Positions 20,924 through 57,446 are shown, numbered from the stretch's first letter. The stretch is 64,000 nucleotides of DNA from Candidatus Latescibacterota bacterium (GCA_965116885.1 OZ220741.1:1-64000); one strand, 5' to 3'. The notes: generated by a model from the letters alone, not told the origin. Numbers and translations: made by a program.

Positions 20924-21517
20924 TTATGGTCTTGTCAATGTGATGTCATAGTCGTTCAGAGCGTTCCAAAGATCGGCGTGTTGAGTCAATGGCCTGACTG
21001 CCAGCGTATCCAATTTATCGAACGCCCGATCAAAAATGGCACCGCACCAATGCCCCGTAAATCGTGAGTGATACAGAAATCCATCGGCGTCTGGAAGATG
21101 GGCATAGACATCCGAGGATAATGAACGGCCTTCGAGGTGGTTCGAGTCGTGGACAACATCCGGGGGAGCACCAATACGGATTGGTCCATCCCCTCGGAGG
21201 TCCACAAGATTCAAATCCTGCTGAGATTGGAACGACACGACCAGCCTGGAAGTAATGCCTGGTCTTGGGATTACGCGAGGCAGGCGGCGTGTCAAGCTGT
21301 TACGCACCACAGCCTCCCATAAGCTGCACGGCACGGTTTCAGCCCCGTACAGCACAGCATAGTTCCCGGCCGGATCGCTGAATCGGCTCGGCACAGGAAT
21401 GGCATTAATCGGTGTGGCGGCGTGGCGTTGTTTAATGACACGGAACATCGACGCAATCCGGAACGTGCGAATCTGTGCTTCAATACGCCCTATAAGATCG
21501 ACATAGCTCGCCATCAT
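20924..21517 (-). CDS. RES-domain toxin
   Basis: FRV...SRF...VLYGAE...LWEAVVR...LVDL...DGFLYHSRFTG...AIFDRA; start overlaps the antitoxin stop. Confidence 0.85.
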   Translation of the reverse strand: MMASYVDLIGRIEAQIRTFRIASMFRVIKQRHAATPINAIPVPSRFSDPAGNYAVLYGAETVPCSLWEAVVRNSLTRRLPRVIPRPGITSRLVVSFQSQQDLNLVDLRGDGPIRIGAPPDVVHDSNHLEGRSLSSDVYAHLPDADGFLYHSRFTGHWCGAIFDRAFDKLDTLAVRPLTQHADLWNALNDYDITLTRP

Positions 21518-21957
21518 CCAAAGTCACCTTGGAGGTATCCTTTAGCGGCAGCCTTAACACGGGCGACTTCTCCTTTGTGAAGAAGGGCAAGCGGTTCCGC
21601 TCCATCAAGCGCGTCGTTTGGTGCTGTCAGCCAATACCACATTTCATAGGCGTCATCGAATAGCTTGGTAATACGATCAAGCCTTTTGATAGGCTGTCCT
21701 TGTTTGTCGAATTGTCCAGCGGGAAAGACATAATCGTGCTTGGCATTTTTCCATCCGACTATATGCCCTTTCTTCAGCCAGTCGTGAACAACTTGGTGGT
21801 GATTGAGGCCAGCGAGAGCGACAAGTTGAGAGGAAGTTAGCAGGTCTTCCAGGCCTTCGATCTCTTGGGTATTTGCCTTGATCAATTCGTTCGCCTGTTG
21901 TTCATCAATTAGACATGGTTCGGTACCTTCAATGATTTCTATATTTTGCGTATTCAT
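21514..21957 (-). CDS. Xre/MbcA/ParS-type antitoxin
   Basis: HTH-like segment, YVFPAGQF, WLTAPNDALDGAEPLALL C-terminal domain; GGAG RBS before MNTQ. Confidence 0.82.
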   Translation of the reverse strand: MNTQNIEIIEGTEPCLIDEQQANELIKANTQEIEGLEDLLTSSQLVALAGLNHHQVVHDWLKKGHIVGWKNAKHDYVFPAGQFDKQGQPIKRLDRITKLFDDAYEMWYWLTAPNDALDGAEPLALLHKGEVARVKAAAKGYLQGDFG

Positions 21958-22010
21958 TTTCGATTCTCCAGTGCTTGAGTGCTTATTCCACAACTTCCCG
22001 GCACATGGGA

Positions 22011-22046
22011 AATATAGCCTCTTTTGGATGTCTGTCAACATTTGAC
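22011..22046 (-). promoter_or_regulatory. sigma70 promoter of TA operon with overlapping inverted repeat
   Basis: TTGACA (22038-22033), 16 nt, TATATT (22016-22011); GTCAA-cat-TTGAC palindrome over the -35. Confidence 0.55.
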
Positions 22047-22157
22047 GAGCAGCATGTTTGATTCACGGATCTGTAGCCCAAAAATTGAACCAGTTTGCAG
22101 GCTAATTTGCGCTATGTCACAGCCTTTATACCGATTCTACCATTGGGGTACATCTCA

Positions 22158-22187
22158 TTTATTTTTACCCTAAAATGACACGGACGC
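22158..22187 (+). repeat. Right copy of 30-bp direct repeat
   Basis: tttatttttaccctaaaatgacacggacgc. Confidence 0.8.
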
Positions 22188-22197
22188 AGACAGACCA

Positions 22198-23115
22198 CTA
22201 TGTAATCACACCGCGTTTGCGAAGCATATCGTCCACCTCATCATCGCCCGTTGTTTTGCCACCAAAGTTGAACTCCGACCCCACATTGAGCAACAACTCA
22301 ATCACCCCCGTATAATCGGCATCTGGCACGGGATGATTCGCCAAAAAGTACATCGTTGAACCAAGAGCTGTACCGTCAAAATCATTTTTCAACTCAACAG
22401 ACGCTCCGTATCCCAGAAGCATCTCGACCATATCTCTCCGACCGCGTTGTGATGCCAACATCAACCCCGTATTATTTGCCCCGCCCCTTGCGTCTATATC
22501 CACGCCGCATTTGATAAGACATTCTGCCACCCCAGTGTGTCCATATTTACAAGCGGACCAGAATGCCTCTTCCAACTCCCTGCGGGCTAAACCTCCCCCA
22601 TCGACAAATCTCTCGACCAACTCAAGCTCTCCCAGCCCAGCGGCGACTTCGACATTCATGATCTTTGCACCGCATTCAAGAAGAGCCTGAACCGACTCGG
22701 GATACTCAGAACTAAGCGCGAGCCTTAGTGGTTCACCATCTCCCTTTATCCCATCTACCCTGGCACCCGCATTGACGAACACGCTCACAAGCTCAGCGGC
22801 GACACCCGATTTATGTGGGTGAAAGCTGGTCACCAGCGAAACAAGGGGTGTAGTCCCAGATCCCCCATCCAGGAACGTAGCATCTATTTCAGCACCAGCA
22901 TCGATCAGCACATTTGCTACATCAACCGCGTTGACAGGTGTCCTCTGCCGTTCATCTTCCACGCCATTTGCCGCCACATAGTGAATCAACATCGCCCTAT
23001 GTGCTCTGGATGATCGCCTGCGAATCAGATCAGGCTCTCTCTCAAGCAGCGATTGAAGCGTCTCCGTATCGCCTGAAATCACGGCATCAACTGCTTCCTC
23101 AAATTTCTCAGTCAT
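22198..23115 (-). CDS. Ankyrin repeat protein
   Basis: Repeated LIDAGAEID / GTTPL / NTGLMLASQRG...LLGYGASVE motifs. Confidence 0.85.
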   Translation of the reverse strand: MTEKFEEAVDAVISGDTETLQSLLEREPDLIRRRSSRAHRAMLIHYVAANGVEDERQRTPVNAVDVANVLIDAGAEIDATFLDGGSGTTPLVSLVTSFHPHKSGVAAELVSVFVNAGARVDGIKGDGEPLRLALSSEYPESVQALLECGAKIMNVEVAAGLGELELVERFVDGGGLARRELEEAFWSACKYGHTGVAECLIKCGVDIDARGGANNTGLMLASQRGRRDMVEMLLGYGASVELKNDFDGTALGSTMYFLANHPVPDADYTGVIELLLNVGSEFNFGGKTTGDDEVDDMLRKRGVIT

Positions 23116-23986: not shown

Positions 23987-24883
23987 CTATACCTTCACCT
24001 TCAACGCACCCGGAACAACCTCAATCTTTGCGGGAATCTCACACATCGGTTCCCCATCCGCAAAAATCCACAAAGGATCATCGGACTCAATCTGCAAAGT
24101 GCTGGTCTGCACAACGCGCACAGCCGAATGACCAACATGAGCGCCGGAATACGCGCGCAAAAACATCCGCAGAACCGTCCAGCGAGAAACATCTGCCACA
24201 ATGCACACATCCAGCACCCCATCATCAACCATGGCATCAGGTGCAATTTTGACCCCACTCCCATAAAAAGGCGCATTCGCCGTTGCCGCCAGCAAAATAC
24301 GCCCCTCAAAAACGCCAAAATCTCCCCGCAAACGCACAAGAGAAGATCGATATCCGACCAGTGTTCGCAAAACTGTCAGCCCATAAGACACCGTTCCTCC
24401 CACCTTCAAAGCCCGTGTGAGAAAACCAGTCCCCTGATTCTGCATCCTTTGCGCCACCGCAGTATCGAAACCCAAACTCGCAACAGTCGCAAAAAATCGG
24501 TCACCCACTTTCCCCAGATCAATCGCGCGATCCACTCCATGCACCAGCGTATTGACCACATCCTCCACATCACTGGACAGCCCCAACGCCCGTACCAAAT
24601 CATTCCCGCGACCACAGGGCACAATCCCCAAAACCGCATCTGAATTTGCGAGACCATTGACCACCTCATGCACTGTCCCATCCCCCCCACACGCAGCAAC
24701 CTGTCGTGCCCCACGCGCCAATGCTTCCTGCGCTAACCGCTCGCAATCGCCCGGTGCTCCCGACATCATCAAATCGACATATACACCGCGCTCGTGCAAC
24801 AAATCCGCAACCCGCTCACCTGTGCGCCTTGCACGGCCGCGGCCTGAAACGGGATTTGCAATAATTGTCCAATGATTTGACAT
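23987..24883 (-). CDS. Diacylglycerol/lipid kinase family protein (YegS/DgkB-like)
   Basis: IIANPVSG, GGDGTVHEVVNG, GRGNDL, ADGE. Confidence 0.88.
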   Translation of the reverse strand: MSNHWTIIANPVSGRGRARRTGERVADLLHERGVYVDLMMSGAPGDCERLAQEALARGARQVAACGGDGTVHEVVNGLANSDAVLGIVPCGRGNDLVRALGLSSDVEDVVNTLVHGVDRAIDLGKVGDRFFATVASLGFDTAVAQRMQNQGTGFLTRALKVGGTVSYGLTVLRTLVGYRSSLVRLRGDFGVFEGRILLAATANAPFYGSGVKIAPDAMVDDGVLDVCIVADVSRWTVLRMFLRAYSGAHVGHSAVRVVQTSTLQIESDDPLWIFADGEPMCEIPAKIEVVPGALKVKV

Positions 24884-24907
24884 AAGAATAAAAAGAAAAC
24901 TCACCTC

Positions 24908-25052: not shown

Positions 25053-26108
25053 TTAAATCCCAAACCTCTGTTTCAATCTCTGAATCCGATTAAAAGATTC
25101 GCAAATGCGACCTTCTCCAATAACGCCATCTACTACCGCCTGCACAATAGCATCTTTTACCTCATACACCTGCTCAATATTGTATTCCCCAATCTGGTTG
25201 CCGAGCAAAATCATATCAACACCTGCTTTTACAGCCTCAACAACCGCTTCTGTCAACCCATACGCCTCAACAATCGCCCCCATCTGCATATCATCGGAAA
25301 TAACGACCCCATCAAAACCCAGCTCATCCCTCAGGAGCCTCGTCATAATATCATACGACAAAGTTGCCGGTCTTCCGCTCTTATCGAGCTTCCGATTCAC
25401 AATATGCGCGGTAAGAATCGGATCGTCATAGCCTCTCTGGATAAATTTTTGATACGGCAAAAGCTCTTTCGAAAGTCGGTATGTCTCCGTAACATCAGTA
25501 ACACCGAGATGCGTATCACCCGCCGCACTTCCATGCCCGGGAAAGTGTTTCAGCGTCGGTATCACCTGCTGTTCTCGATGCGCCTTAATAAACGCATTGG
25601 CATGCGCCACCACGGTCCTCGGCACATCGCTAAATGACCGTTCTATCGCGCCAACAGCAGGACTTTTGGGATCTATATTCACATCGACAACCGGAGCAAA
25701 ATTCCAGTTAATCCCCATCTCTTTCAATTCGCACGCAAGAGCATTTGCTACCTTTTTTGTCTCACCCGGAGACTGCCCACCGAGTGCTTGAGCAGACGGC
25801 ACAGAAACCGAAAAACCATACTTCTTTTTCAGCCGGTTGACATACCCACCCTCTGCGTCAACTGCGATAAAATAAGGCGCTATATCCTGAAGCGCTGTGG
25901 TCAATGCGCGCAATTGACGCGGAGACGTAATATTCCGCACCACCTCACCTTTACTCGGCAAATCATAATCAAAAAGCACAACCCCACCGGGCTGAATATC
26001 CCCCAGCATCGTCGCAATATCCCCATATAGAACATCACCGCGAAAACCGATCATCAGCATCTGCCCCACGGCTTCTTCTACGGAAGTTCCAAGATCACCA
26101 GGCGTCAC
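25053..26108 (-). CDS. GH3 beta-N-acetylhexosaminidase (NagZ-like)
   Basis: DAEGGYVNRL, NFAPVVD, KHFPGHG, DTH, ISDDMQM; GTG start overlaps SDR stop (GTGA). Confidence 0.85.
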   Translation of the reverse strand: MTPGDLGTSVEEAVGQMLMIGFRGDVLYGDIATMLGDIQPGGVVLFDYDLPSKGEVVRNITSPRQLRALTTALQDIAPYFIAVDAEGGYVNRLKKKYGFSVSVPSAQALGGQSPGETKKVANALACELKEMGINWNFAPVVDVNIDPKSPAVGAIERSFSDVPRTVVAHANAFIKAHREQQVIPTLKHFPGHGSAAGDTHLGVTDVTETYRLSKELLPYQKFIQRGYDDPILTAHIVNRKLDKSGRPATLSYDIMTRLLRDELGFDGVVISDDMQMGAIVEAYGLTEAVVEAVKAGVDMILLGNQIGEYNIEQVYEVKDAIVQAVVDGVIGEGRICESFNRIQRLKQRFGI

Positions 26109-26917
26109 GCCACATCTCCCAAACCCTGATCCCTCATCTTCCTCTTCACCAGCCACTCGACAATTTTGGGATGAATCACTTGAAGAAAGGGCAATGCGCG
26201 GTGATGCCAGGGAAGCACCAATTCGCGCCTCTGTTTTCGCATCGCTTTCAAAATTGCCGCGCAACAATATACAAGAGAAAGCGCCTCTTTGTTGTGCCGT
26301 TGTGAAGAATCGCCCAGTGCTTCACCATCCTTCCCAAAAGCGTGTTGTCTCAGATTCGTCCCCTGAAGCCAATGCGGCAAAACCGTCAACACATGCACAT
26401 CTTCAACTTCCAGACGCAGAGCATTTAAAAAACCCAGCACCGCGTGCTTTGACGCACCATATCCCGTATGCAAAGGCACGCCAAATTTGCCCTGCAAAGA
26501 TGCAATGGCCACAATCATACCCTTCGAAACTTTCAAATGTGGCAATGCCGCGTGTACGCAATAGACCAGACCGAGATAATTGGTCTCCATCAGCTTGCGA
26601 AACACCTCCAAATCCTCCACTTCGTCAAACCGCGCCCACATACTAATCCCGGCATTGGCAATCAAATAATCTATGCGACCAAATTCTGCAATCGTCGCCT
26701 CAACCAATTGCTCACAATCTTCGGCCTGTGTCACATCCCCCACCACTGTCACCACCTCTGCGCCCAACCGCCGACACTGCTCAGCCGTCTCGCCCAGCCT
26801 TTCCTCTCGCCGAGCAAATAATGTCAGGTGTGCGCCCTGCTTCGCCAGTTCCAGAGCCAACGCAGCTCCAAGCCCCGAAGACGCGCCTGTAATAATCGCT
26901 ACCTTATCGCAAAACAT
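26105..26917 (-). CDS. SDR oxidoreductase, DHRS7B-like; candidate acyl/alkyl-DHAP reductase
   Basis: TGASSGLG, NAGIS, METNYLG, IVAIASLQGK, YGASKHA; start may be a few codons upstream. Confidence 0.8.
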   Translation of the reverse strand: MFCDKVAIITGASSGLGAALALELAKQGAHLTLFARREERLGETAEQCRRLGAEVVTVVGDVTQAEDCEQLVEATIAEFGRIDYLIANAGISMWARFDEVEDLEVFRKLMETNYLGLVYCVHAALPHLKVSKGMIVAIASLQGKFGVPLHTGYGASKHAVLGFLNALRLEVEDVHVLTVLPHWLQGTNLRQHAFGKDGEALGDSSQRHNKEALSLVYCCAAILKAMRKQRRELVLPWHHRALPFLQVIHPKIVEWLVKRKMRDQGLGDVA

Positions 26918-26951
26918 TGCGCCATTCAAAATCAATAGGTCCTTTCCATTT

Positions 26952-28784
26952 TCAATCCGCAAACGCCCCATTGCCAATGGCAAAGATATTATTCGGATCC
27001 ATCGCCTTTTTCATCTGCCGCAACACCGCAATGCTATTTTCGCTTTGAATCTGCGGCAAAAAGCCACTGCGGAGCTTGCCCACGCCGTGATGGTGCGACA
27101 AAGACCCGCCGTGGTCTAAAATCTCCTGCCGCAACTGGCGCTCAATCGCGTGATAAACGCCAACCGAATCCTCAAGCCCCTGCGCGCAAAAACCCATTGT
27201 AAAATAAATGCACACACCCGTGTGATACGTCTGCGTCACGCGATACGCCAGAAAGGGTTTGCCCGGCACGCCGTATTCTTCACACAAAACAAATAGCTTC
27301 TTTTCCACCGCACCAATAACATCGTGAATATTAGTCCACGGCACAGAAGTCTCAAATGTCTCGCCCAAAATGTGAAACTGAGTAAAAAAATCGCGAATAT
27401 ACGCAATCCCAAACGTCAGCATATATCCCCGCTCGCCTCTGTGCGCCCCGCCCGAAATACCGCCGTATTTCTTCGCCAAACGAAAAATCGTCTTTGCCTG
27501 CTGCCGGACCTCGTCTTTTGTGCCCTCCATCACAATCGTACACGCCACCAACTGCTTTGGATCAAACCCCTTGACCTTGAACAAAAAAAATTGCAGAATA
27601 TCCTGCTGGAACTTCTTAAATCCTTTAGCCTCGGGCTTCAGCGCCTGCCCAAGATGAAATTCCGTATTGTTCACCAGCCGAATACTCGCCGGAATTTGTC
27701 CCGTCTGCCGAAGTGCCTTTAAGTAATCCACACCCCGTTCAAATGACGGAAATACCAGTGAGCCAAATGCCTGTGCTTCGGGCTGTTTGTGGATCTTTAT
27801 CGTCGCCCGGGTAATAATCCCCAAATTGCCCTCACTCCCAAACAAAAACGACCGGGGCTGCACACCTGTCGAATTGCGCGGCGTCGCGTGATGCGTCTCC
27901 ACCTCCCCCGTTGGCGTCACCAGCGTGGCCTCTATCACAATATCCTCAATATTGCCATACCGGTTCTTTTTCATACCACTGGCATTGGTCGCAATCCATC
28001 CCCCCAGAGTTGAAAACTCCAGACTATCTGGATCGTGTCCCGACGTGTATCCCAACTCATTCAGCGCAATCTCCAATTGCTTACCCGAAATGCCCGCCTG
28101 CACACACGCTTGAAAATTCTCTTCATCCACCTGCACAATGCGATTCATGCGACGCATATCCACCGACGCGACCATCCGCGTCTCCGAAGTCGGAATTGCG
28201 AGCGCACCGCTCACATTCGTCCCCCCGCCATAGGGCACCAGCGCCACATTGTGGTCATTTGCAAGCTGGATAATAGCCTGAATATCCGCGTCTTCCTCCG
28301 GGAACAACACCACATCCACCAGGCGTTCGGGCGGCCGATGGTACAAAATTTGATACACCTCATCCACACTCAACTGCCCGTGGCTATGCACCAGACGCTC
28401 TATGTCATCCTGAGAAACCCCATCTTCACTGAGCGCATCGCGCACCGCCCTCAAAAATTCATCATTTGTCACGGGCGCGGGCAAATCGCGGTGTTCGACC
28501 TCTTGCCCCATATCTTCGGGACGGACCGGCACTTCGAGCACCTCTTCGACAAAAGGCAAAAAATACGGCATCCGATAGCCACACAACGGATACCGCGTTC
28601 CCGTCACATGCACGGTCCTGTCATCGTCAAACTCAAACCGCGTATCCTCATACCCCCACTTGTGTGCAAACCGCTCGCCTTCTGCCCCCTCAGAAAAACG
28701 GTCTTTGCTGGCAAAAGCGCGACGCCCCCGAACGAGCAAAAATACCAGCGCCAGTAAAAATGCAATGATCATCAGTTCATTCAT
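26952..28784 (-). CDS. Alkyl-dihydroxyacetonephosphate synthase (AGPS/ADAS, FAD-linked) with N-terminal membrane anchor
   Basis: HSHGQ, PYGGGTNVS, GHDPDSLEFSTLGGWIATNASGMKKNRYGNIED, GSEGNLG, IAYIRD, ETFETSVPW, RVTQTY...CIYF, GGSLSHHHGVGKLR. Confidence 0.9.
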   Translation of the reverse strand: MNELMIIAFLLALVFLLVRGRRAFASKDRFSEGAEGERFAHKWGYEDTRFEFDDDRTVHVTGTRYPLCGYRMPYFLPFVEEVLEVPVRPEDMGQEVEHRDLPAPVTNDEFLRAVRDALSEDGVSQDDIERLVHSHGQLSVDEVYQILYHRPPERLVDVVLFPEEDADIQAIIQLANDHNVALVPYGGGTNVSGALAIPTSETRMVASVDMRRMNRIVQVDEENFQACVQAGISGKQLEIALNELGYTSGHDPDSLEFSTLGGWIATNASGMKKNRYGNIEDIVIEATLVTPTGEVETHHATPRNSTGVQPRSFLFGSEGNLGIITRATIKIHKQPEAQAFGSLVFPSFERGVDYLKALRQTGQIPASIRLVNNTEFHLGQALKPEAKGFKKFQQDILQFFLFKVKGFDPKQLVACTIVMEGTKDEVRQQAKTIFRLAKKYGGISGGAHRGERGYMLTFGIAYIRDFFTQFHILGETFETSVPWTNIHDVIGAVEKKLFVLCEEYGVPGKPFLAYRVTQTYHTGVCIYFTMGFCAQGLEDSVGVYHAIERQLRQEILDHGGSLSHHHGVGKLRSGFLPQIQSENSIAVLRQMKKAMDPNNIFAIGNGAFAD

Positions 28785-28799
28785 TTTTTACCTCAATTT

Positions 28800-30737
28800 T
28801 CAAGACTCTGGATTCAACAACGTCGCAATATGCACCGCTTGAAACAGCGCGGCAGCCTCAGACTGAATCCGCAGAGATCGTCTTTTGGGCAACAGGGTCG
28901 TCTCCCCCAACATAGGCGGCGAAACCCACACATCGACCTGCCCCGGATTGATATTGATATTGCCCTTTGGACATTTGGGCCACAGCGCGTGAAGCCCCCG
29001 GTACGCAATCGGCACAATCACTACATCCTGGGGCAATTGTGCAAACACCCCGTGTTGAAGCGGAAATTGTTGAATCGCAAAAGCCGCGGTCGTCGCCATG
29101 GGATAAATAACGCCCGGTCGCTCTGTCAATGCCTGTGCCACGCGCTGTGTCGTATGGCCCGCAGCATGGGACCGCTCGAGCATCACATAGCCATCGACAT
29201 TTTCCAGAATCTGATCAAAAACCTCCGACGTCATCCCAAACTGCGTGATCTGCTTCGACCCAATTTTGATACCCGAACGCGCCAGCCCCGTACGCGCCAG
29301 AATTACACAAGGTTCGGGTCTTTCCCATCCCATCGCATTCATAAATTCTCGAGACTGCAAAACCTTATACAAAACGGGATGGTCAAACAAACTCTGATGC
29401 GTTGGCAAAAAAATAAGACGCCGATCTTCCGCATCGGCTCCCAAATCTCGTACGATGGCCTCAAAATGGGGATCGATATAAACGTTGACGCGAATATCAA
29501 AAATATCCAGCGTGCGACGTCCCCAATCGAGCCAGGTGCGCCATCCAGCTTCGCGGCGACGGATGGGATCGGCTTCTTTTTTTAACAATTTCTTTTTTTG
29601 ACGTCCCACCTTGAGCGAAGTCCCCATCCACCTGGCAAAACGCATTCCTCTCCGCAATTTTGAAAATTGTCCTCGACGCCCGACATCGGGATATTCCAAA
29701 AATCGGCCCTGCGCCGTATCTGCGAGCAAAGCGGGAATTTCCATACGCGAAACACCTTGTCCAACGCGATTGATTTGCGCGTTCACATCGCATATCAGCT
29801 TAACCGACAAATCAATCATATCCCGCGTCAAATAACTATACTCCTGTCCATACCAATACAGCCTGGGACGCAGCCTGGTGGGATCTTCTTGATGCGCCTG
29901 CAAAAATTCAATCAACAGTGCCTTGATGTGCAACACATCATCATCTATTCCATCCAACTCCACATCGTCGCGCAACTGCGCCAAAGCCACCTCCGCATCC
30001 ACAATAACCTTCCACACCGACACACCAAACCAGCCGAAATTCGTCAAATAATTATACCGCGTTGACAACAACCCTCCCGCAGCGATCAAATTGAGCGTGC
30101 GCTGTGCCACATCTTGTAGCAAATCGCGCAAAGATCCCACAATCCGCTCGCCATCTCGTTCACAACTGTACTCTTCGGCCCAGTGTGTCCCTTCGTCCGC
30201 CTCCACATTGCCAAGAGCCTCTGCAACGGCGCGGGCATGCGACATCGGCACCTGTGTAATATGCACCTGAGCCAGAGCCTCTTCAACGGCTTCGGGCGCG
30301 TGCAACTCCGCCTGTGTCAGAGCCTTCAAATACAGAGACTGATATAACTTCAAAAAATCTTTCGCATCCCCGCGCCCACGCTCGACAAATTGTCTCCTGA
30401 GTTGCAAATAAATTCGGCTGCCCATGTGATATTGCGGAAGCAACTCTGCAAAAGGACGATACGCCTCGTCCAAACGCTCATCGCGAACCTCGGGCAAGCC
30501 CCTAAAAATCGCATCCACAAGCCGAGCGCGAAATTGCAGTGCCTCCATATCCATCGCGCCGCTCTGACTTTTGGGCCAGACAAGCGCATCCGGATCAAAC
30601 TCGTCAAAATAGCCATCGTGACGCACCGCTTCGAGCATAAGCTGAACCGATTGGTCATAAATAGCCAACATCTGCTCCAGGTCGTCGAGCAGTGTTTCGT
30701 GCAATGGGCGAGTATCCGATTTATCGCGTGAAGTCAT
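28800..30737 (-). CDS. Acyltransferase (PlsC/PlsB superfamily domain) with large uncharacterised N-terminal domain
   Basis: C-terminal FLPTHQSLFD (HX4D), VIVPIAYRG, LWPK...INPGQVDV; block III reads YPMATT instead of FPEGTR. Confidence 0.7.
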   Translation of the reverse strand: MTSRDKSDTRPLHETLLDDLEQMLAIYDQSVQLMLEAVRHDGYFDEFDPDALVWPKSQSGAMDMEALQFRARLVDAIFRGLPEVRDERLDEAYRPFAELLPQYHMGSRIYLQLRRQFVERGRGDAKDFLKLYQSLYLKALTQAELHAPEAVEEALAQVHITQVPMSHARAVAEALGNVEADEGTHWAEEYSCERDGERIVGSLRDLLQDVAQRTLNLIAAGGLLSTRYNYLTNFGWFGVSVWKVIVDAEVALAQLRDDVELDGIDDDVLHIKALLIEFLQAHQEDPTRLRPRLYWYGQEYSYLTRDMIDLSVKLICDVNAQINRVGQGVSRMEIPALLADTAQGRFLEYPDVGRRGQFSKLRRGMRFARWMGTSLKVGRQKKKLLKKEADPIRRREAGWRTWLDWGRRTLDIFDIRVNVYIDPHFEAIVRDLGADAEDRRLIFLPTHQSLFDHPVLYKVLQSREFMNAMGWERPEPCVILARTGLARSGIKIGSKQITQFGMTSEVFDQILENVDGYVMLERSHAAGHTTQRVAQALTERPGVIYPMATTAAFAIQQFPLQHGVFAQLPQDVVIVPIAYRGLHALWPKCPKGNININPGQVDVWVSPPMLGETTLLPKRRSLRIQSEAAALFQAVHIATLLNPES

Positions 30738-30746
30738 AAGAGAAGC

Positions 30747-32351
30747 CTAAACACCTGTCTTTAGCACATGGCGTTGCAAGCCGGGAATATGAATATCTTT
30801 TACGTAAACGGGCCAATCTATGCGCGAAACATCACAATTAAAAATTTCTTTATCTTCTGCATCCAGGCTGTCAAACAACTGATTCATATTGTCGTTTTGA
30901 AACACGCAATCCAGAGAAATATAAGAACCGTAAATATCGGTAAGCGCCAACGTATTTTCCAAAGTAGCATTCAAAATCGATAATTGGCGTTGGCGTTTTG
31001 AGACATCGACCATTGGCACCCAATCCAGTGCCCGTTGCAAAATTTTGAGTGGCAACAGATACTTATAGCGCAACTTTCGACGGAATTGTGACAATGTCGG
31101 ATAGGTCCACGGTGCCACCGCAATGGGTTTGCCATCGCGGTCTCTCATTGGATTGTTCACAAAATACTCGTACACATACTGGACGACTTCACCCACTGTC
31201 ACCGGATTCTTTGCACTTGTTGTCACATGATAAACCTTCAAATCGGCATTTGCACGGATAGAAGGCAAAACACTGATAATCACATTGATAATAATATCCA
31301 CGGGAATAACATCTAAAACCGCTTCTGGACGCGCTGGAAAATCCGTCAAACGCCCCTTGCCGTAGTGTGCAATAAGTGGATCGGCCACTTTTAGCCCCTC
31401 CAGCCATCCCGGCTCTGGATCGGACAAACTGCTCTCAATAATAGAAGGGCGCACGATCACGGTTGGCAAATCGCCCCGGGTCTTGGCAATCATCTGCTCG
31501 CCCATGGCTTTGGTAAAAGAATAACTGTCGTGCCAGCCCAACTCTCGCCCGCGCTTTATGCCGCGTGCCACCATCTGTTCCCGCACCCAGCGCTGGCGCA
31601 AGGCCTCCAACTGATGTTCCCGCCGATGTGCTGTAACGCGCTTGCCACGATCCTGTCGGTCCAACAACCGCGTAAATTCCGCAAATCGCTCGGGACTCCG
31701 CGACGACGCCTCTACTTCGCGGCTATACGTCAGAATATCTTCAATTTCCGAGTCCAGACTATAATCGGGCGCGCGACCATTTCCCATCTGTTGTGCCACC
31801 GTTTGATCGGGCACGGGTGCGTCTTCAGAAATGATTCTCTTTTGCCGCCCATTGACATAAGCCGTTGAAACATGCACGAGCACAGCATCTCGACAGGCTT
31901 TGGCAAATTCGACAACGCGCTTGGCTCCAAGTGTATTTTGCGCCAGAGCCAGATCCAGTGGCGCGTCAAAAACCACATTGGCCGCGCTGTTAATCACAAT
32001 ATCAACTTCACGGGCCAACCGCGCATATGTCTCCGCGTCCATGCCGAGGTGATCTTGTGTCAAATCGCTCGGCACGGCAATGACTTTTTCGCGCATCACA
32101 GCATCAAAACGACCCCCGAGTTCTGCGCGCAATCGCGTAAAGGCACTGGATTGCAAAATCTCCCTTTGCAGTCGATCTTCGGCACTAATGGGCTTGCCCC
32201 CTCCCCGCCTTTGAGGTCGCACCATGAGATAAATGCGCCCAACATCTGGCGCATGGCAAAGGATTTTTCCCACTAATCCCTTGGCCAAAAAACCAGTTGC
32301 ACCTGTAACAAACAGAACCTTGTGATTCAAAAATGGAATAACGACACTCAT
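30747..32351 (-). CDS. Fatty acyl-CoA/ACP reductase (alcohol-forming, male-sterility FAR family)
   Basis: TGATGFLAK, NSAANVVFD, HVSTAYV, YSFTKAMGE, VRPSII, DVIPVD, C-terminal FNCDVSRIDW. Confidence 0.9.
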   Translation of the reverse strand: MSVVIPFLNHKVLFVTGATGFLAKGLVGKILCHAPDVGRIYLMVRPQRRGGGKPISAEDRLQREILQSSAFTRLRAELGGRFDAVMREKVIAVPSDLTQDHLGMDAETYARLAREVDIVINSAANVVFDAPLDLALAQNTLGAKRVVEFAKACRDAVLVHVSTAYVNGRQKRIISEDAPVPDQTVAQQMGNGRAPDYSLDSEIEDILTYSREVEASSRSPERFAEFTRLLDRQDRGKRVTAHRREHQLEALRQRWVREQMVARGIKRGRELGWHDSYSFTKAMGEQMIAKTRGDLPTVIVRPSIIESSLSDPEPGWLEGLKVADPLIAHYGKGRLTDFPARPEAVLDVIPVDIIINVIISVLPSIRANADLKVYHVTTSAKNPVTVGEVVQYVYEYFVNNPMRDRDGKPIAVAPWTYPTLSQFRRKLRYKYLLPLKILQRALDWVPMVDVSKRQRQLSILNATLENTLALTDIYGSYISLDCVFQNDNMNQLFDSLDAEDKEIFNCDVSRIDWPVYVKDIHIPGLQRHVLKTGV

Positions 32352-32411
32352 AAAAAGACCCCGGCATTACCAAAAAAATTAAAACGCAACAGCACTTAAA
32401 TCACCTTCCCA

Positions 32412-32440
32412 ATTAAAGGCGACCATTAGACTTGTGTCAA
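32412..32440 (-). promoter_or_regulatory. Possible sigma70 promoter of FAR operon
   Basis: TTGACA-17nt-TTTAAT; the -10 deviates from consensus. Confidence 0.35.
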
Positions 32441-32487
32441 CCCCTTTCTCGGGCAGTTCACAAGCGCAAATCCTTATCAAAAATGGG

Positions 32488-32517
32488 GTTGACAAAAAAA
32501 AGGTCAACTCCTATCTT
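32488..32517 (+). promoter_or_regulatory. sigma70 promoter of ndk-fab operon with GTTGAC-N9-GTCAAC palindrome
   Basis: TTGACA (32489)-17nt-TATCTT (32512); inverted repeat at 32488-32508. Confidence 0.55.
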
Positions 32518-32565
32518 GTCCTTCTTCAAGCCGTTATGAGCCTATTTTTTTATGGAATTTTATGC

Positions 32566-32964
32566 ATGGAACGCACCTTGCTCATCGTCAAACCCGACGC
32601 TGTTGCACAAAATGTAATCGGTGAAATCATTCGCCGTCTCGAAGAAAAAAAATTTCGAATTGTAAACCTAAAAATGGTTCGCCTCACGCGCAGACAGGCC
32701 GCCGAATTTTATGCAGTACATCGCCAACGGCCTTTTTACAACGACTTGCTCGATTTTATGACCTCCGGTCCCTGTGTACCCATGGCACTCGAGCGAGACA
32801 ACGCCGTTGCATTTTTGCGCGAAGTCATCGGCAGTACCAATCCCGAAGAAGCCGCAGAAGGAACCATTCGCAAAGACTTTGCAACCGATATTCAAAACAA
32901 TGCCGTACACGCCTCAGATTCACTGGAAAATGCAGCCAAAGAAGTGGCTTTCTTTTTTAGCTAA
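32566..32964 (+). CDS. ndk: Nucleoside diphosphate kinase
   Basis: [31 protein letters not shown]. Confidence 0.95.
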
Positions 32965-32981
32965 AAGCCGTTACCTACATT

Positions 32982-33497
32982 ATGAAAATCGACCTGAGAG
33001 ATATACAGGAAGGCGAAACCGAACTTTCGTTTGAAGAAACGCCTGCCGACCTGCACATTACCGGGGAAGACACCTCATTTGCAGGTGCCATAAACACCCG
33101 TCTCGTCGTGTACAAATACGGCGACTCGCTCTCTGCCAAAGGGCAAACCACCTGTCTGGTGCGCCCCGAATGCGCGCGGTGCCTGGAACCCATCGAATTT
33201 CCCATCGCCATCTCATACACATTCGTTTTTCAAAAAGGTCGCCCTGACCAGATGAACGATGACGATGATGAAACGCTGATCTGGCTCAATGAAGAACCCG
33301 GCGAAATAGACCTGGGCAATGACGTGAAAGACTATATTTTGCTCGAACTACCCATGATCCCAACCTGCGCTGCATCGCCTTCTGGCCCTTGCGAACGCTA
33401 TGAGCAAGACCCCCATGAATTACTGGAATACGAGCGTGAAAAGAGCCACGACCCGCGCTGGGATGCTCTCCGCGTACTAAAAGAAAACGAACAGTAA
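32982..33497 (+). CDS. yceD: DUF177/YceD family protein
   Basis: CARCLEP, LELPM, DPRWDALR; upstream of rpmF. Confidence 0.88.
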   Translation: MKIDLRDIQEGETELSFEETPADLHITGEDTSFAGAINTRLVVYKYGDSLSAKGQTTCLVRPECARCLEPIEFPIAISYTFVFQKGRPDQMNDDDDETLIWLNEEPGEIDLGNDVKDYILLELPMIPTCAASPSGPCERYEQDPHELLEYEREKSHDPRWDALRVLKENEQ

Positions 33498-33527
33498 ACA
33501 GAGCAACAATCAAAAAGGAATACCACC

Positions 33528-33710
33528 ATGGCCAACCCCAAACGAAAAAGTTCAAATTCCCGCACAGGTAAACGCCGTGCCAATTGGAAACTGCGTCAAC
33601 CCACTTTTAACGAATGCCCCAACTGTGGGCAGCAAAAAATACCCCACCGGGTCTGTGGAAATTGTGGTTATTACAATGGACGCGAAGTGGTTGAAACCGA
33701 TGGCTTCTAA
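33528..33710 (+). CDS. rpmF: 50S ribosomal protein L32
   Basis: MANPKRK...CPNCG...[11 protein letters not shown]. Confidence 0.96.
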
Positions 33711-33756
33711 TTTTGGTCTAACGTCGCGCAGACTTTAGAGGAGCAGAGTAATTATC

Positions 33757-34749
33757 ATGTACCCCCTTACAGCCACCATCACCGGGGTTGGGCACTACGT
33801 CCCAGAACAGAAGCTGACCAATATCGACCTCGAAAAAATGGTCGATACATCCGACGAGTGGATCACTTCCCGCACCGGCATCAAAGAACGTCGCATTCTC
33901 GACGAGGGATTGGGCACGTCTTTTATGGCTCTAAAATCTCTGGAAGCCATTCTGCACAACAAAGGGCTCGATGCCAGAGATATCGACCTGCTCATCGTCG
34001 CAACCATCACGCCCGACATGGTATTTCCATCAACGGCCTGTCTGGTACAGGACCAAATTGGTGCCACAAATGCCTGGGCTTTTGATCTGGCGGCAGCCTG
34101 TAGCGGTTTTTTATATGCTCTGATGGTGGGGGGGCAATTTATTGAAACGGGCGCACACAAACGCGTAGTCGTCATTGGAGCCGACAAAATGAGCAGCATT
34201 ACAGACTACACCGATCGCGACACCTGCGTGCTCTTTGGCGATGGCGCGGGCGCCGTTTTACTCGAACCCGGCGAACCCGGTTTGGGGCTTAAAGACTTTA
34301 TCCTCTATTCTGATGGCAGCGGCGTAAAATATCTGCGACAACCCGCTGGCGGCAGCCTGCTTCCCGCCTCTCGTGAAACCGTTGAAAAAAAAATGCATTA
34401 CATTTATCAAGATGGTCGCGAAGTTTTCAAATTTGCAGTCCCCAAAATGGCGGAAGTTTCCGCTCAAATTCTCGAACGCAACGGCCTTGTCGGCAAAGAC
34501 ATCGCGCTTTTTGTGCCACATCAGGCCAACAAACGCATCATTGACGCCTGTGTCAAACGTACAGATATACCCGAAGATCGCGTTGTGGTCAATATTGACC
34601 GCTATGCCAATACCTCGGCTGCCACCATTCCCATTGGCCTGTCTGAAGCAGCCGAACAGAGCCGTCTCAATCGCGGTGACAACGTGTTGCTCGCCAGTGC
34701 CGGTGCGGGATATACCTGGGGCAGCACCCTGCTAACCTGGGCTTATTAG
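33757..34749 (+). CDS. fabH: 3-oxoacyl-ACP synthase III
   Basis: DTSDEWITSRTGI, AACSGF, FGDGAGA, PHQAN, NTSAA. Confidence 0.95.
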   Translation: MYPLTATITGVGHYVPEQKLTNIDLEKMVDTSDEWITSRTGIKERRILDEGLGTSFMALKSLEAILHNKGLDARDIDLLIVATITPDMVFPSTACLVQDQIGATNAWAFDLAAACSGFLYALMVGGQFIETGAHKRVVVIGADKMSSITDYTDRDTCVLFGDGAGAVLLEPGEPGLGLKDFILYSDGSGVKYLRQPAGGSLLPASRETVEKKMHYIYQDGREVFKFAVPKMAEVSAQILERNGLVGKDIALFVPHQANKRIIDACVKRTDIPEDRVVVNIDRYANTSAATIPIGLSEAAEQSRLNRGDNVLLASAGAGYTWGSTLLTWAY

Positions 34750-35667
34750 ATGGAAAAAAAAATTTTCCTATTTCCAGGACAAGGTTCCCAATTCGTTGGC
34801 ATGGGATACGACCTGTACAGAAGCGCACCGGAAGCGCACCAAATTTTTGATCTTGCCGACGATGTGCTCGATATAGACATTAAGTCATTCTGCTTCAACG
34901 GTCCTGCCGAGTCACTCAAACAAACCGCAGTCACACAACCGGCAATTTTTGCCCACAGCATTGCTGCCCTTGAAATACTCAAAAGCCGGGGACTGCACCC
35001 CGACCTCGTGGCAGGACACAGTGTTGGAGAACTCGCCGCGCTCGTTGCGGCAGGTGTTATGCACGTCGAAGATGGCTTTCGGGTCGTCAGCGTTCGCGGA
35101 CATGCCATGCAAGTCGCGGGAAAAATTCGGCCAGGTACCATGGCAGCTGTGCTCGGTCTCGACGACGACGTGATGATTCGGCTTTGCGACGACCTCAGTT
35201 CTTCGGGTCATGTCACAACAGCCAATTTCAATTGCCCGGGGCAAGTGGTCCTATCTGGCGAGGAAAACGCCGTTGACGAAGCACTCGAAAAAGCCAAAGC
35301 ACTGGGAGCCAAACGCGCTGTGCTCTTGCCCGTAGGCGGCGCATTTCATTCGGCCTTGATGCAACCAGCCGTAACAGCACTGACCGACATACTCGAAAAT
35401 GTGCCATTTGTGCGGGCGCAAATCCCCGTGATCCCCAATGTCACGGCTGAACCCACACGCGATCCAGACCTGCTCAAAGACCTGTTGATTGAGCAAGTTA
35501 TTTCGCCTGTCCGCTGGACAGAATCCATGCAAAGGCTCATAGCAGAAGGCATGACTGAAGCCCTCGAAGTGGGACCAGGCAATGTGCTCAAGGGTCTCAT
35601 GCGCCGCATTGACCGCAATATTTTAGTCCGCGAAGCCGGCACATTGGAAGCCATTGAACAACTTTAG
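34750..35667 (+). CDS. fabD: Malonyl-CoA:ACP transacylase
   Basis: FPGQGSQ, GHSVGE, GAFHS, EVGPG. Confidence 0.95.
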   Translation: MEKKIFLFPGQGSQFVGMGYDLYRSAPEAHQIFDLADDVLDIDIKSFCFNGPAESLKQTAVTQPAIFAHSIAALEILKSRGLHPDLVAGHSVGELAALVAAGVMHVEDGFRVVSVRGHAMQVAGKIRPGTMAAVLGLDDDVMIRLCDDLSSSGHVTTANFNCPGQVVLSGEENAVDEALEKAKALGAKRAVLLPVGGAFHSALMQPAVTALTDILENVPFVRAQIPVIPNVTAEPTRDPDLLKDLLIEQVISPVRWTESMQRLIAEGMTEALEVGPGNVLKGLMRRIDRNILVREAGTLEAIEQL

Positions 35668-35690
35668 AACATTTAACCGACAATTATCTC

Positions 35691-36437
35691 ATGAACCGAC
35701 TCACAGATAAAACAGCTCTTATAACAGGTGGGTCTCGCGGCATTGGCGAGGCCATTGCCCTGCGCCTTGCGCGCGAAGGAGCCAACATCGCCGTATGTGC
35801 CAGCCAGAGCACGGAAGCTGCAGAAGTCGTGGCCGAAAAAATCCGCGAACAGGGCAGAGAGGCCATTGTACGACAAACCGATGTATCCAATGCCGAATCA
35901 GTTGAAGCCCTTGTAAAGACCGTCCTCGACACCTGGGGCAAAATTGATATACTCGTCAACAATGCGGGTATCACCCGCGACAATTTGCTGATGCGTATGA
36001 AAGAAGACGAGTGGGATGCTGTTCTTGGCGTCAACCTCAAAGGTGCGTACCATTGTATCAAAGCCGTCATCCGTCCCATGATGAAGGCGCGAACCGGTCG
36101 CATCATCAACGTCTCATCGGTCGTGGGACTCACGGGCAATGCCGGGCAGATCAATTACGCCGCATCCAAATCGGGCCTTATTGGCCTGACCAAATCGGTA
36201 GCCCGAGAATTGGCCAGCCGCAATATTACGGCCAACGCCATTGCGCCCGGATTTATTCCAACGGACATGACCGCCAAACTCAACGACAAAATACAAGAAC
36301 AGTTGATCGCACAGATTCCACTGGGCAAACTCGGTAGCCCCGACGATGTCGCTGCTGCCACAGCCTTTCTCGCCTCTGACGACGCGGCCTATATTACCGG
36401 ACAGGTTCTCGTTGTCGATGGCGGAATGGTGATGTAA
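35691..36437 (+). CDS. fabG: 3-oxoacyl-ACP reductase
   Basis: TGGSRGIG, NNAGITRD, GNAGQINYAASK. Confidence 0.95.
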   Translation: MNRLTDKTALITGGSRGIGEAIALRLAREGANIAVCASQSTEAAEVVAEKIREQGREAIVRQTDVSNAESVEALVKTVLDTWGKIDILVNNAGITRDNLLMRMKEDEWDAVLGVNLKGAYHCIKAVIRPMMKARTGRIINVSSVVGLTGNAGQINYAASKSGLIGLTKSVARELASRNITANAIAPGFIPTDMTAKLNDKIQEQLIAQIPLGKLGSPDDVAAATAFLASDDAAYITGQVLVVDGGMVM

Positions 36438-36479
36438 ATAATCACTACACACTACACACTGCAAACGGAGGGCTTCACA

Positions 36480-36719
36480 ATGACCGATGATATTCAACAA
36501 AAAGTTACTGACCTGATTGTTGACCAACTCGGAGTCGATGCCGATAGCGTCAATGCCGACGCCCATTTTATTGACGATCTGGGCGCAGACTCGCTCGACA
36601 CAGTCGAACTGGTCATGGCTTTCGAAGAAGAATTTGACATGGAAATCTCCGATGAAGACGCCGAAAAGCTCGAAACAGTTGGCGATGCCATCGCATACTT
36701 AGACGAACGTCTGGATTAA
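36480..36719 (+). CDS. acpP: Acyl carrier protein
   Basis: [20 protein letters not shown]. Confidence 0.97.
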
Positions 36720-36769
36720 TTCGGGAACTGGAGGCTGGAACCAATCTCAAGCCTTCAGGAGGTCATTTA

Positions 36770-38020
36770 GTGAACAGACAACGCAGAGTGGTCATCACCG
36801 GCATGGGCGCACTTGCCCCCAATGGCAATACCACAAAAAGCTATTGGGAAGCACTGTGCAATGGACAAACAGGTGTTGGCCCCATAACAAAATTTGACGC
36901 CACCGATTTCCGCGTGCAATTTGCTGCCGAAATCAAAAACTTTGATCCAGAACACTTTGGCATTGATCGTCGCAGCCAGCGTCGTATGGACCTCTTTACC
37001 CAATACGCCATTGCATCATCTGTTCAAGCCGTAGAAAATGCAGGTCTCGACATCAGTAATGAACAGGCCGAACGAATCGGGGTTGTATTTGGCTCGGGCA
37101 TTGGCGGCATCCAAACCTTTGAGGATCAGCACGAAGCCTATCGCAAAGATGGTCCAAGACGCATCAGTCCGCTTTTTGTACCCATGATGATCCCCGACAT
37201 GTCCGCAGGTCAAGTATCCATCCACCTCGGTGCCAAAGGCCCCAATTATACCACCGTCACAGCTTGCGCCTCGGCAGCCCATGCCATTGGCAATGCAGCC
37301 CGAGAAATTTGGGACGACGAAGCCGATGTCATGATCACAGGGGGCGCAGAAGCCGCCATTACCCCGATGTCAGTGGGTGGATTTGCCGCGGCGCGAACGC
37401 TTTCAACCCGCAACGACGCCCCAACGCAAGCCAGCCGTCCCTTTGACGCAGACCGAGATGGATTTGTAATTGGAGAAGGCGCCGGTGGGCTTGTTCTGGA
37501 AGAACTCCAACGCGCAACACAACGGGGCGCCACCATCTATGCCGAAGTAGTGGGGACGGGCTACACTGGTGATGCCTATCACATTACCGGTATGGCACCT
37601 GGTGGCGAGGGGGGTGCCCGCGCCATGTGCCGCGCCATGCGACAGGCGCAGATCAATCCCGAAGACGTGGCTTATATCAACGCACACGGCACATCAACAC
37701 CCGTGGGTGACCCGGCAGAAACAGCCGCCATCAAATCCGTATTTGGCGATTATGCCAAAAAGCTCGCCGTCAGTTCGACAAAATCCATGACCGGACATCT
37801 TTTGGGGGCTTCGGGTGCGATTGAAACCATTGCAACAACCCTGGCGGTTCACCACAATGTGGTACCGCCCACGATCAACTATGAAACACCCGATCCAGAA
37901 TGCGACCTCGATTACGTGCCCAATGAAGCGCGAGAAATACCCGTCGAAATCGCCATTAGCAACTCCTTTGGCTTCGGGGGTCACAACGCAGTACTCATCC
38001 TGCGCAAGTTTCGCAACTAA
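36770..38020 (+). CDS. fabF: 3-oxoacyl-ACP synthase II
   Basis: TACASA, NAHGTST, KSMTGHLLGA, SNSFGFGGHN. Confidence 0.96.
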   Translation: MNRQRRVVITGMGALAPNGNTTKSYWEALCNGQTGVGPITKFDATDFRVQFAAEIKNFDPEHFGIDRRSQRRMDLFTQYAIASSVQAVENAGLDISNEQAERIGVVFGSGIGGIQTFEDQHEAYRKDGPRRISPLFVPMMIPDMSAGQVSIHLGAKGPNYTTVTACASAAHAIGNAAREIWDDEADVMITGGAEAAITPMSVGGFAAARTLSTRNDAPTQASRPFDADRDGFVIGEGAGGLVLEELQRATQRGATIYAEVVGTGYTGDAYHITGMAPGGEGGARAMCRAMRQAQINPEDVAYINAHGTSTPVGDPAETAAIKSVFGDYAKKLAVSSTKSMTGHLLGASGAIETIATTLAVHHNVVPPTINYETPDPECDLDYVPNEAREIPVEIAISNSFGFGGHNAVLILRKFRN

Positions 38021-55239: not shown

Positions 55240-55254
55240 TAAAAAGGAAACACC

Positions 55255-56010: not shown

Positions 56011-56012
56011 AA

Positions 56013-57437: not shown

Positions 57438-57446
57438 AGGTATTGA

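Follow-up and report, generated by a model that had tools for sequence, protein, structure and literature searches.

A 64,000-nucleotide stretch of DNA from a Candidatus Latescibacterota bacterium (GCA_965116885.1 OZ220741.1:1-64000, the whole of which is referred to below as the window) carries, on its minus strand between positions 26105 and 32351, four co-oriented genes in the order fatty acyl-CoA reductase (FAR), acyltransferase, alkyl-dihydroxyacetone phosphate synthase (AGPS) and short-chain dehydrogenase/reductase (SDR). These genes probably form a conserved Latescibacterota operon for the oxygen-independent, AGPS-dependent synthesis of 1-O-alkyl-glycerol-3-phosphate, a plasmanyl precursor. 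In the proposed pathway, FAR would convert an activated fatty acid into a fatty alcohol, and the acyltransferase, an orphan protein of 645 aa, would turn dihydroxyacetone phosphate (DHAP) into 1-acyl-DHAP. A membrane-anchored AGPS would then swap the acyl group for the alcohol, thereby making the ether bond, and the SDR would reduce the 2-keto group to give 1-alkyl-glycerol-3-phosphate (1-alkyl-G3P). An earlier note on this DNA had described a complete eukaryote-type pathway; an AGPS-dependent ether-lipid operon is indeed the best reading of the locus, but only AGPS is clearly homologous, the likeness of FAR being at the level of the family only.

The four genes are closely packed, with 9 nt between the FAR stop codon and the acyltransferase ATG, 15 nt, including a GAGG, between the acyltransferase stop and the AGPS ATG, and 34 nt between the AGPS stop and the SDR ATG at position 26917. 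Open reading frames (ORFs) and a direct reading of the junctions thus agree with the four co-oriented genes and gaps of 9, 15 and about 34 nt noted before. The SDR frame is open further upstream, to a TTG at 26983 (26105..26983, 292 aa); a start at ATG 26917 yields an ordinary SDR N-terminus, and the NCBIfam model matches the longer ORF from residue 24 onwards. Across the cluster, GC content varies little (0.507-0.524, versus 0.47-0.57 for the whole window). Contamination or a recent eukaryotic insert was considered and rejected, because the GC content is even, the flanks are made of bacterial housekeeping genes, and the cluster is present in many closed chromosomes of metagenome-assembled genomes (MAGs).

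The flavoenzyme encoded at 26952..28784 (minus strand, 610 aa) is a solid AGPS assignment on its sequence, and acyl/alkyl exchange is its predicted activity. It combines the Pfam domains FAD_binding_4 (PF01565, 8.4e-39) and FAD-oxidase_C (PF02913, 6e-38), and it matches guinea-pig AGPS (PDB 4bby) with E=1e-151 across residues 42-602 and Dictyostelium AGPS (PDB 2uuu) with 4.7e-90. The next families, D-lactate dehydrogenase and glycolate oxidase, reach 2e-25 at best, and the NCBIfam GlcD model gives 168.9 bits, far below its cutoff of 567.9; an identity as D-lactate or glycolate dehydrogenase, with which the earlier note had envisaged that the FAD enzyme might group, was rejected on these grounds. 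The strikingly animal-like character that the same note had claimed for AGPS is upheld. The same motif strings occur in the alignment with the guinea-pig enzyme. All of the strings it quoted are present, but three spacings were slightly off: 5 residues, and not 4, separate GGW from SGMKKN in AGPS, 4 and not 3 separate RVTQTY from CIYF in the same protein, and 8 and not 3 separate QGK from Y.ASKHA in the SDR.

The similarity extends to the active site. In Dictyostelium AGPS, residues R352, R447 and Y508 are important for catalysis (PMC3509576). Their counterparts in the window enzyme are, according to the printed alignment, R369, R464 and Y527, the offset of 3 in the chain numbering being our own count. 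The residues facing R369 and Y527 are precisely those at which the variant guinea-pig chains 4bc7 and 4bca deviate from the wild type. Also kept in the alignment is the HHH loop (residues 564-566), which we take to be a functional site of AGPS. The first ~20 residues are hydrophobic, with a segment at about positions 4-19, and this sequence feature suggests a membrane anchor.

The first gene of the cluster (30747..32351, minus strand, 534 aa) is, by sequence, a FAR of the bacterial ElbD type. Its product contains an NAD_binding_4 domain (PF07993, 8.9e-65) and a C-terminal Sterile domain (PF03015, 2e-14), displays the strings GATGFLA and YSFTK, and matches PDB entry 7eoz, 'Fatty acyl-CoA reductase', with 4.2e-91. 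Among the matches listed, identity is 43-50% to the reductase modules of longer ElbD-like proteins, with 100% of its length aligned, and 32-33% to plant FARs. The ElbD-like relatives are multidomain proteins in which FAR is found with AMP-binding, carrier and PF01553 acyltransferase domains; another architecture among the longer relatives, AMP-binding-FAR-HAD (~1,200 aa), is devoid of an acyltransferase domain. The 120 longer FAR relatives listed are of one or the other type, and a FARAT-sized fusion of FAR to the 645-aa acyltransferase family was sought among them and not found. The end product of the window FAR is presumably the alcohol. Since this FAR is closest to ElbD reductase modules, the 'stand-alone elbD hits' that have been reported for Latescibacterota MAGs (bioRxiv 10.64898/2026.06.23.733905) may correspond to the same gene.

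The second gene (28800..30737, minus strand) owes its assignment to fold and motifs. No Pfam or NCBIfam family is recognized in its 645-aa product at default thresholds: PF01553 remains sub-threshold (E=0.12, 12.6 bits versus a cutoff of 23), as it does in the 16 of 35 family members that give any match at this level (best, 0.023), and the GPAT_C domain (PF19277) gives no match in the protein. Searches of the PDB with phmmer and with profiles returned no relative, only phage coat proteins at E=0.6. Sequence relatives amount to 183 matches, of which the 120 listed include ~650-aa 'hypothetical proteins' without precomputed Pfam domain and one protein named AGPAT by its source. A profile built from 35 members of the family and scored against 1.84 billion representative proteins gave 64 matches, all of them the family itself (7 full-length proteins of 607-665 aa, 1 weak match of 584 aa, and fragments for the remainder); no GNPAT, PlsB, FARAT or long fusion was found in this search. 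The proposal of the earlier note that the second gene encodes a GNPAT is therefore not borne out.

Signs of an acyltransferase are nonetheless present in the C-terminal part of the protein. An H447-x4-D452 motif (29382-29399, minus strand) is supported by the family alignment, in which all 35 rows have H447 and the residue at 452 is always acidic (D in 27, E in 8). In hhalign, the family aligns with 24 ElbD-like proteins over 150 columns, which fall onto their C-terminal acyltransferase domain (E=5.5e-4, probability 30%), with the motifs in register: H-x4-D with H-x4-D, IYPmGTT with IYPEGTR, and VIIP with VPIVP. Block III of the family is thus IYPMGTT where ElbD domains have IYPEGTR, and an EGTR-type motif is absent. 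This block binds the glycerol-phosphate acceptor in GPAT and AGPAT enzymes. An Atlas feature search placed 29 of 30 matches of the 645-aa protein in the PF01553 set, at ~0.91.

Structure prediction gives a clearer picture. The AlphaFold2 model of the 645-aa protein is confident (pLDDT 83.9, pTM 0.88) and comprises an N-terminal, mostly helical domain of ~414 aa (29496..30737), with long helices and a pLDDT mostly of 80-95 that weakens at about residues 140-190, and a C-terminal acyltransferase domain of the PlsC/GPAT fold (28800..29495, stop codon included). In a Foldseek search of the PDB, PlsC (5kym) is the best match (E=8.5e-5 and 8.7e-4, probability 1.00, TM 0.65-0.69 on target length), followed by squash and algal GPATs (1iuq, 1k30, 8ia1) and PatA; glycerolipid acyltransferases are the only significant PDB fold matches of the model. 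Because no other match in this search exceeds a probability of 0.2, the N-terminal domain is left without a confident fold match. No GNPAT structure was scored in the fold search, and the comparison may for this reason lean towards PlsC. From the model and the motifs, we read the 645-aa protein as a very divergent acyltransferase of PlsC fold whose catalytic dyad is intact and whose block III is non-canonical. Its gene position between FAR and AGPS suggests DHAP as the acceptor; this orphan enzyme is the new element of the locus and would fill the 'missing GNPAT' step. As a separate observation, residues ~138-225 give sub-threshold matches to NBD_C (PF17042) in 7 of 35 members (best, 7.3e-4), and these matches fall in the least confident part of the N-terminal domain model.

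The fourth gene (26105..26917, minus strand, 270 aa from ATG 26917) encodes a classical SDR. It matches adh_short in Pfam (7.1e-50) and NF004825 in NCBIfam (4e-90, above cutoff), and contains both TGASSGLG, which follows the TGxxxGxG pattern, and YGASK, which follows YxxxK, as is typical of the classical SDR fold. The nearest PDB structures are clavaldehyde dehydrogenase and 11-beta-HSD1 (2e-29 to 5e-26), and an Atlas search with the SDR returned only generic bacterial SDR clusters, with no link to DHRS7B; the DHRS7B-like character ascribed to it in the earlier note is at most putative. Its position in the cluster, together with the existence of SDR-type acyl-DHAP reductases elsewhere, makes it a candidate alkyl/acyl-DHAP reductase.

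Conservation of the cluster was followed from the acyltransferase: genome contigs were scanned with its profile, yielding 163 relatives from which 79 loci were kept, and partner genes were then located on the same strand by tblastn with score thresholds of 300, 250 and 200 bits. Most of the 79 loci are labelled Candidatus Latescibacterota, the others Gemmatimonadota, Handelsmanbacteria, Eisenbacteria, Planctomycetota or unclassified, and the closest are 93-96% identical to the window. The order FAR-acyltransferase-AGPS-SDR on one strand is found in 32 of the 79 (as labelled, 28 Latescibacterota, 3 Gemmatimonadota/-etes and 1 'bacterium'), with acyltransferases as little as 48% identical to that of the window. 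Recurrence on this scale and at this divergence puts the gene order beyond chance, and it answers the doubt raised in the earlier note as to whether the gene set is conserved elsewhere. Three more loci show FAR-acyltransferase-AGPS before a short flank at a contig end, and two show FAR-acyltransferase before a short flank. Another three (L016, L025 and L064) have FAR and the acyltransferase but neither AGPS nor SDR in the surrounding 10 kb, and in 39 the acyltransferase stands alone among unrelated genes (5 of them with a short flank). It is therefore not obligatorily tied to AGPS. The neighbours of these stand-alone copies (M81 peptidase, NfeD/SPFH, hybrid histidine kinases, UvrD, GFO/IDH) show no common theme.

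In a tree that retains all 80 acyltransferase copies, the 41 linked to FAR fall together to the same side of one branch (SH-aLRT 90), and FAR linkage requires 1 label change, versus a mean of 27 after shuffling. As related rows share labels, the tree shows one clade-wide arrangement and not co-evolution. By heuristic linkage of contigs, the genome of one stand-alone locus (L075) appears to encode AGPS elsewhere, and that of another (L067) an AMP-binding-FAR-HAD protein that lacks an acyltransferase domain; the orphan acyltransferase may serve proteins of this latter kind in trans. Two side observations concern the relatives. Small toxin-antitoxin or defence-type cassettes lie within the operon in L002, L003, L005, L014, L015 and L017, either between AGPS and SDR (a DUF6036 nucleotidyltransferase, DUF433, DUF5615) or between the acyltransferase and AGPS (a Fic/DOC gene, or an AbiEii-like AAA_21 ATPase with DUF4276); the window has none. 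In L016, FAR and the acyltransferase are followed by a different SDR, of the enoyl-ACP-reductase type (12448-13374, plus strand; adh_short_C2, 2.8e-65).

A number of observations weigh against the proposed pathway, and some of them favour other readings of the locus. Residue-level support is confined to the AGPS step, all the other substrate roles being inferred. For the acyltransferase, block III reads MGTT where ElbD-type domains have EGTR, hhalign gives the ElbD domain a probability of just 30%, and the Atlas matches share 105-109 of 256 features, a range that the tool ties to chance or distant relatives; with so few shared features, the PF01553 match is a lead only. The best fold match is moreover a lysophosphatidic acid (LPA, sn-2) acyltransferase and not a DHAP/G3P sn-1 enzyme, and neither the stand-alone copies nor the loci with only FAR and the acyltransferase follow the four-gene scheme. 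The main rival explanation is that the orphan enzyme acts like an AGPAT at sn-2 of 1-alkyl-G3P, acyl-DHAP being supplied by a housekeeping acyltransferase elsewhere. Such a role would agree with PlsC as closest structure, with the AGPAT-type clusters that are the Atlas neighbours of the protein, with the separation of its gene from AGPS in 39 of 79 loci, and with the description of the aligned ElbD acyltransferase domain as AGPAT-like (PMC9131029). A source of acyl-DHAP would, however, still be needed, as no GNPAT is listed for Latescibacterota in the published survey (PMC13012113). The gene sits between FAR and AGPS, that is, in pathway order, block III is altered throughout the family, and the fold comparison may be biased in favour of PlsC, as noted above. 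We consider an sn-2 role unlikely.

The reduction steps can also be read otherwise. The SDR has no specific signature, and ElbD, whose reductase is the closest relative of the window FAR among the matches listed, was reported to give aldehyde with no detectable alcohol (PMC9131029), both of which count against the proposed pathway. The SDR could accordingly be a fatty-aldehyde reductase acting after an aldehyde-releasing, ElbD-type FAR, while another enzyme would reduce alkyl-DHAP. We hold this to be distinctly improbable: FAR carries the C-terminal Sterile domain of FAR-family enzymes, the SDR follows AGPS and not FAR in 32 of 32 four-gene loci, and SDR-type acyl/alkyl-DHAP reductases, DHRS7B and DHRS7, are established in eukaryotes (PMC13200781). 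Less probable again is a full aerobic plasmalogen pathway of which the operon would supply the first part, a PEDS1/CarF desaturase gene lying at another site in the genome. This arrangement is known in Myxococcus xanthus (PMC13012113), but the PEDS1 dataset of the same paper has no Latescibacterota entry (its files 13-15 lying outside the word search), and no lipid desaturase match (PF10520) was found among the window ORFs scanned. Since PEDS1/CarF is neither seen in the window nor listed for the phylum, the end products are probably alkyl ethers (plasmanyl) and not plasmalogens. Finally, the locus might yield free fatty alcohols or wax esters, or its AGPS-like flavoenzyme might use another substrate, so that no ether glycerolipid would be made. 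FAR enzymes do also serve wax synthesis, and a sponge-symbiont preprint describes alkyl ethers and no short-chain plasmalogens of the kind usually ascribed to bacteria (bioRxiv 10.64898/2026.06.23.733905). We give this last possibility hardly any credence, in view of the conserved catalytic residues and full-length similarity of AGPS, of its retention with FAR across a deep clade, and of the window being free of any wax synthase that could be found. A further point against the four-gene pathway comes from M. xanthus, in which the AGPS route is a minor one (PMC9131029).

The AGPS-dependent pathway outlined at the start thus remains the reading that we favour. A bolder version of it, which we advance tentatively and regard as possible rather than probable, is that the 645-aa protein founds a narrow new family of DHAP acyltransferases, a functional analogue of GNPAT beyond sequence recognition, that its N-terminal domain docks FAR and/or AGPS in a membrane metabolon, and that Latescibacterota and their relatives own a self-contained, oxygen-independent, four-enzyme route to 1-O-alkyl lipids. 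If this were true, these bacteria would be producers, not assigned as such before, of the non-isoprenoid monoalkyl glycerol ethers of sponges and sediments, and homology surveys would score whole phyla as pathway-incomplete, this step being invisible to them.

Several neighbouring genes deserve mention. Downstream of the SDR and on the same strand lie genes for a glycoside hydrolase of family 3 (GH3), a YegS-type lipid kinase, an ABC ATPase and an ankyrin-repeat protein. The NagZ-like GH3 hydrolase (25053..26108, minus strand; Glyco_hydro_3, 1.6e-63; NF003740, 5.2e-53, below cutoff) has a possible GTG start at 26108 that shares bases with the stop codon of the SDR (GTGA), and more than four genes may thus belong to the transcription unit. 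GH3 is probably co-transcribed with the operon without being a pathway gene; among the 32 four-gene loci, it comes after the SDR in no more than 13, all of them close relatives of the window, and its restriction to these 13 makes it look like a recent insertion into the transcription unit. The YegS/DgkB-type lipid kinase (23987..24904, minus strand; DAGK_cat, YegS_C; TIGR00147, 6.3e-51, above cutoff) would be an optional fifth pathway-associated gene. In 17 of the 32 four-gene loci, it is found on the same strand no more than 3 kb downstream of the SDR, and in three distant ones (L022, L026 and L043) it comes directly 3' of the SDR, at 53-107 nt. The kinase may thus be tied to the pathway as an alkyl(acyl)glycerol kinase that, more speculatively, would feed alkyl(acyl)glycerols back into it.

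On the other side, FAR is divergent from a fatty-acid synthesis cluster (ndk, yceD, fabH, fabD, fabG, fabF; 32434-38020, plus strand); of the 32 four-gene loci, 23 retain the divergent ndk gene and 22 the divergent fabH gene. The intergenic region between FAR and ndk (32352..32433) is presumed, from its position, to contain the promoter; a sigma-70 scan found no minus-strand site in it. Counts in this promoter and terminator scan did not exceed those of shuffled sequences (13 versus 9.9 and 14 versus 11.4), which leaves the operon boundaries unmarked. Two other regions of the window are recorded here for completeness. At 20927-23115 (minus strand), a RES-domain protein is encoded beside a 175-aa ORF without family, a possible toxin-antitoxin pair, next to the ankyrin-repeat protein. 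At 53671-58682 (plus strand), two sulfatases, a PhyH-family dioxygenase and an alpha-L-fucosidase occur in a row, which suggests the breakdown of sulfated, fucose-rich glycans.

Bacterial ether glycerolipids are environmental biomarkers and are abundant in sponges, and their producers and enzymes are largely unassigned. Latescibacterota have already come into view in this context. Homologues of agps and elbD were reported in 67 and 50, respectively, of 92 Black Sea Latescibacterota MAGs (PMC11868695), and the sponge-symbiont preprint, in whose main text the word GNPAT is absent, calls the phylum a group not earlier linked to ether-lipid capacity (bioRxiv 10.64898/2026.06.23.733905). In the datasets of a PNAS 2026 study (PMC13012113), the FAR file has 39 mentions of Latescibacterota and the AGPS file 32, and there are none in the GNPAT file (which has 1,043 mentions of PF01553) or in the PEDS1 file. 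In the same study, 73 bacterial genomes had the full four-enzyme set, 61 from Myxococcota and 12 spread across five other phyla, and AGPS lacked phylogenetic signal (its section 11). In another study, elb-like clusters are tied to Acidobacteriota and Poribacteria only (mSystems 2022, PMC9426513). No description of the four-gene operon or of the 645-aa family was found in full-text literature searches, subscription papers and some supplements being outside their coverage. The suggestion of the earlier note that the operon may be undescribed hence stands for the gene set as such, but has to be tempered by a direct precedent in M. xanthus, and by the AGPS and FAR/elbD-like hits already published for Latescibacterota. 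Surveys thus count FAR and AGPS in this phylum but no acyl-DHAP-forming enzyme, and the locus gives a clonable candidate for that step, within a compact four-gene unit, open to expression and assay, from an uncultured phylum. The locus is relevant to the origin of the eukaryotic pathway too, as AGPS-based operons with different partner enzymes exist outside Myxococcota.

Other known systems share parts of this scheme. The anaerobic PlsA/PlsR and Ger enzymes also provide bacterial, oxygen-free routes to ether glycerolipids, but they are unrelated enzymes that reduce an existing ester, and the Pfam scan showed none of this kind in the window cluster. PlsC, the LPA acyltransferase of Thermotoga maritima (5kym), is the best fold match to residues ~415-645 of the orphan protein and shares its H-x4-D dyad; sequence identity is, however, 14-15%, and the window protein adds the ~414-aa helical N-terminal domain and has MGTT, not EGTR. 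ElbD unites FAR, acyl-CoA synthetase, ACP and an AGPAT-like acyltransferase in one protein, and resembles the window proteins in its FAR (43-50% identity) and in the register of its acyltransferase motifs. In contrast, the window cluster has no adenylation or carrier domains and encodes separate proteins, combined with AGPS; the mechanism of ElbD itself is not settled (PMC9131029). With the mammalian FAR1/GNPAT/AGPS/DHRS7B (PexRAP) route, the proposed pathway would have in common the same four chemical steps in the same order, a homologous AGPS with its catalytic residues, and a FAR of the same Pfam families. It differs in operating without peroxisomes, with an AGPS that has a hydrophobic N-terminal anchor, an acyltransferase that shows neither PF01553 above threshold nor GPAT_C, and no PEDS1 seen.

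The closest parallel is the M. xanthus operon MXAN_1676-MXAN_1675-MXAN_1674, which encodes AGPS, FARAT and an NAD-dependent epimerase/dehydratase (PMC9131029, PMC13012113), and in which deletion of MXAN_1676 lowers ether lipids slightly (PMC9131029). Both loci bring together AGPS, FAR activity, an acyltransferase and an NAD(P) oxidoreductase in one bacterial operon. In the window, however, FAR and the acyltransferase are separate genes, the order is FAR-acyltransferase-AGPS-SDR and the phylum is another one; the acyltransferase is not a GNPAT-like domain detectable by sequence, and the reductase is a classical SDR and not a member of the epimerase/dehydratase family. The novelty lies in the occurrence of the split architecture in this phylum and, most of all, in the orphan acyltransferase. 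Because the chemistry and the idea of such an operon are both precedented, the locus refines a known picture and does not add a new kind of system.

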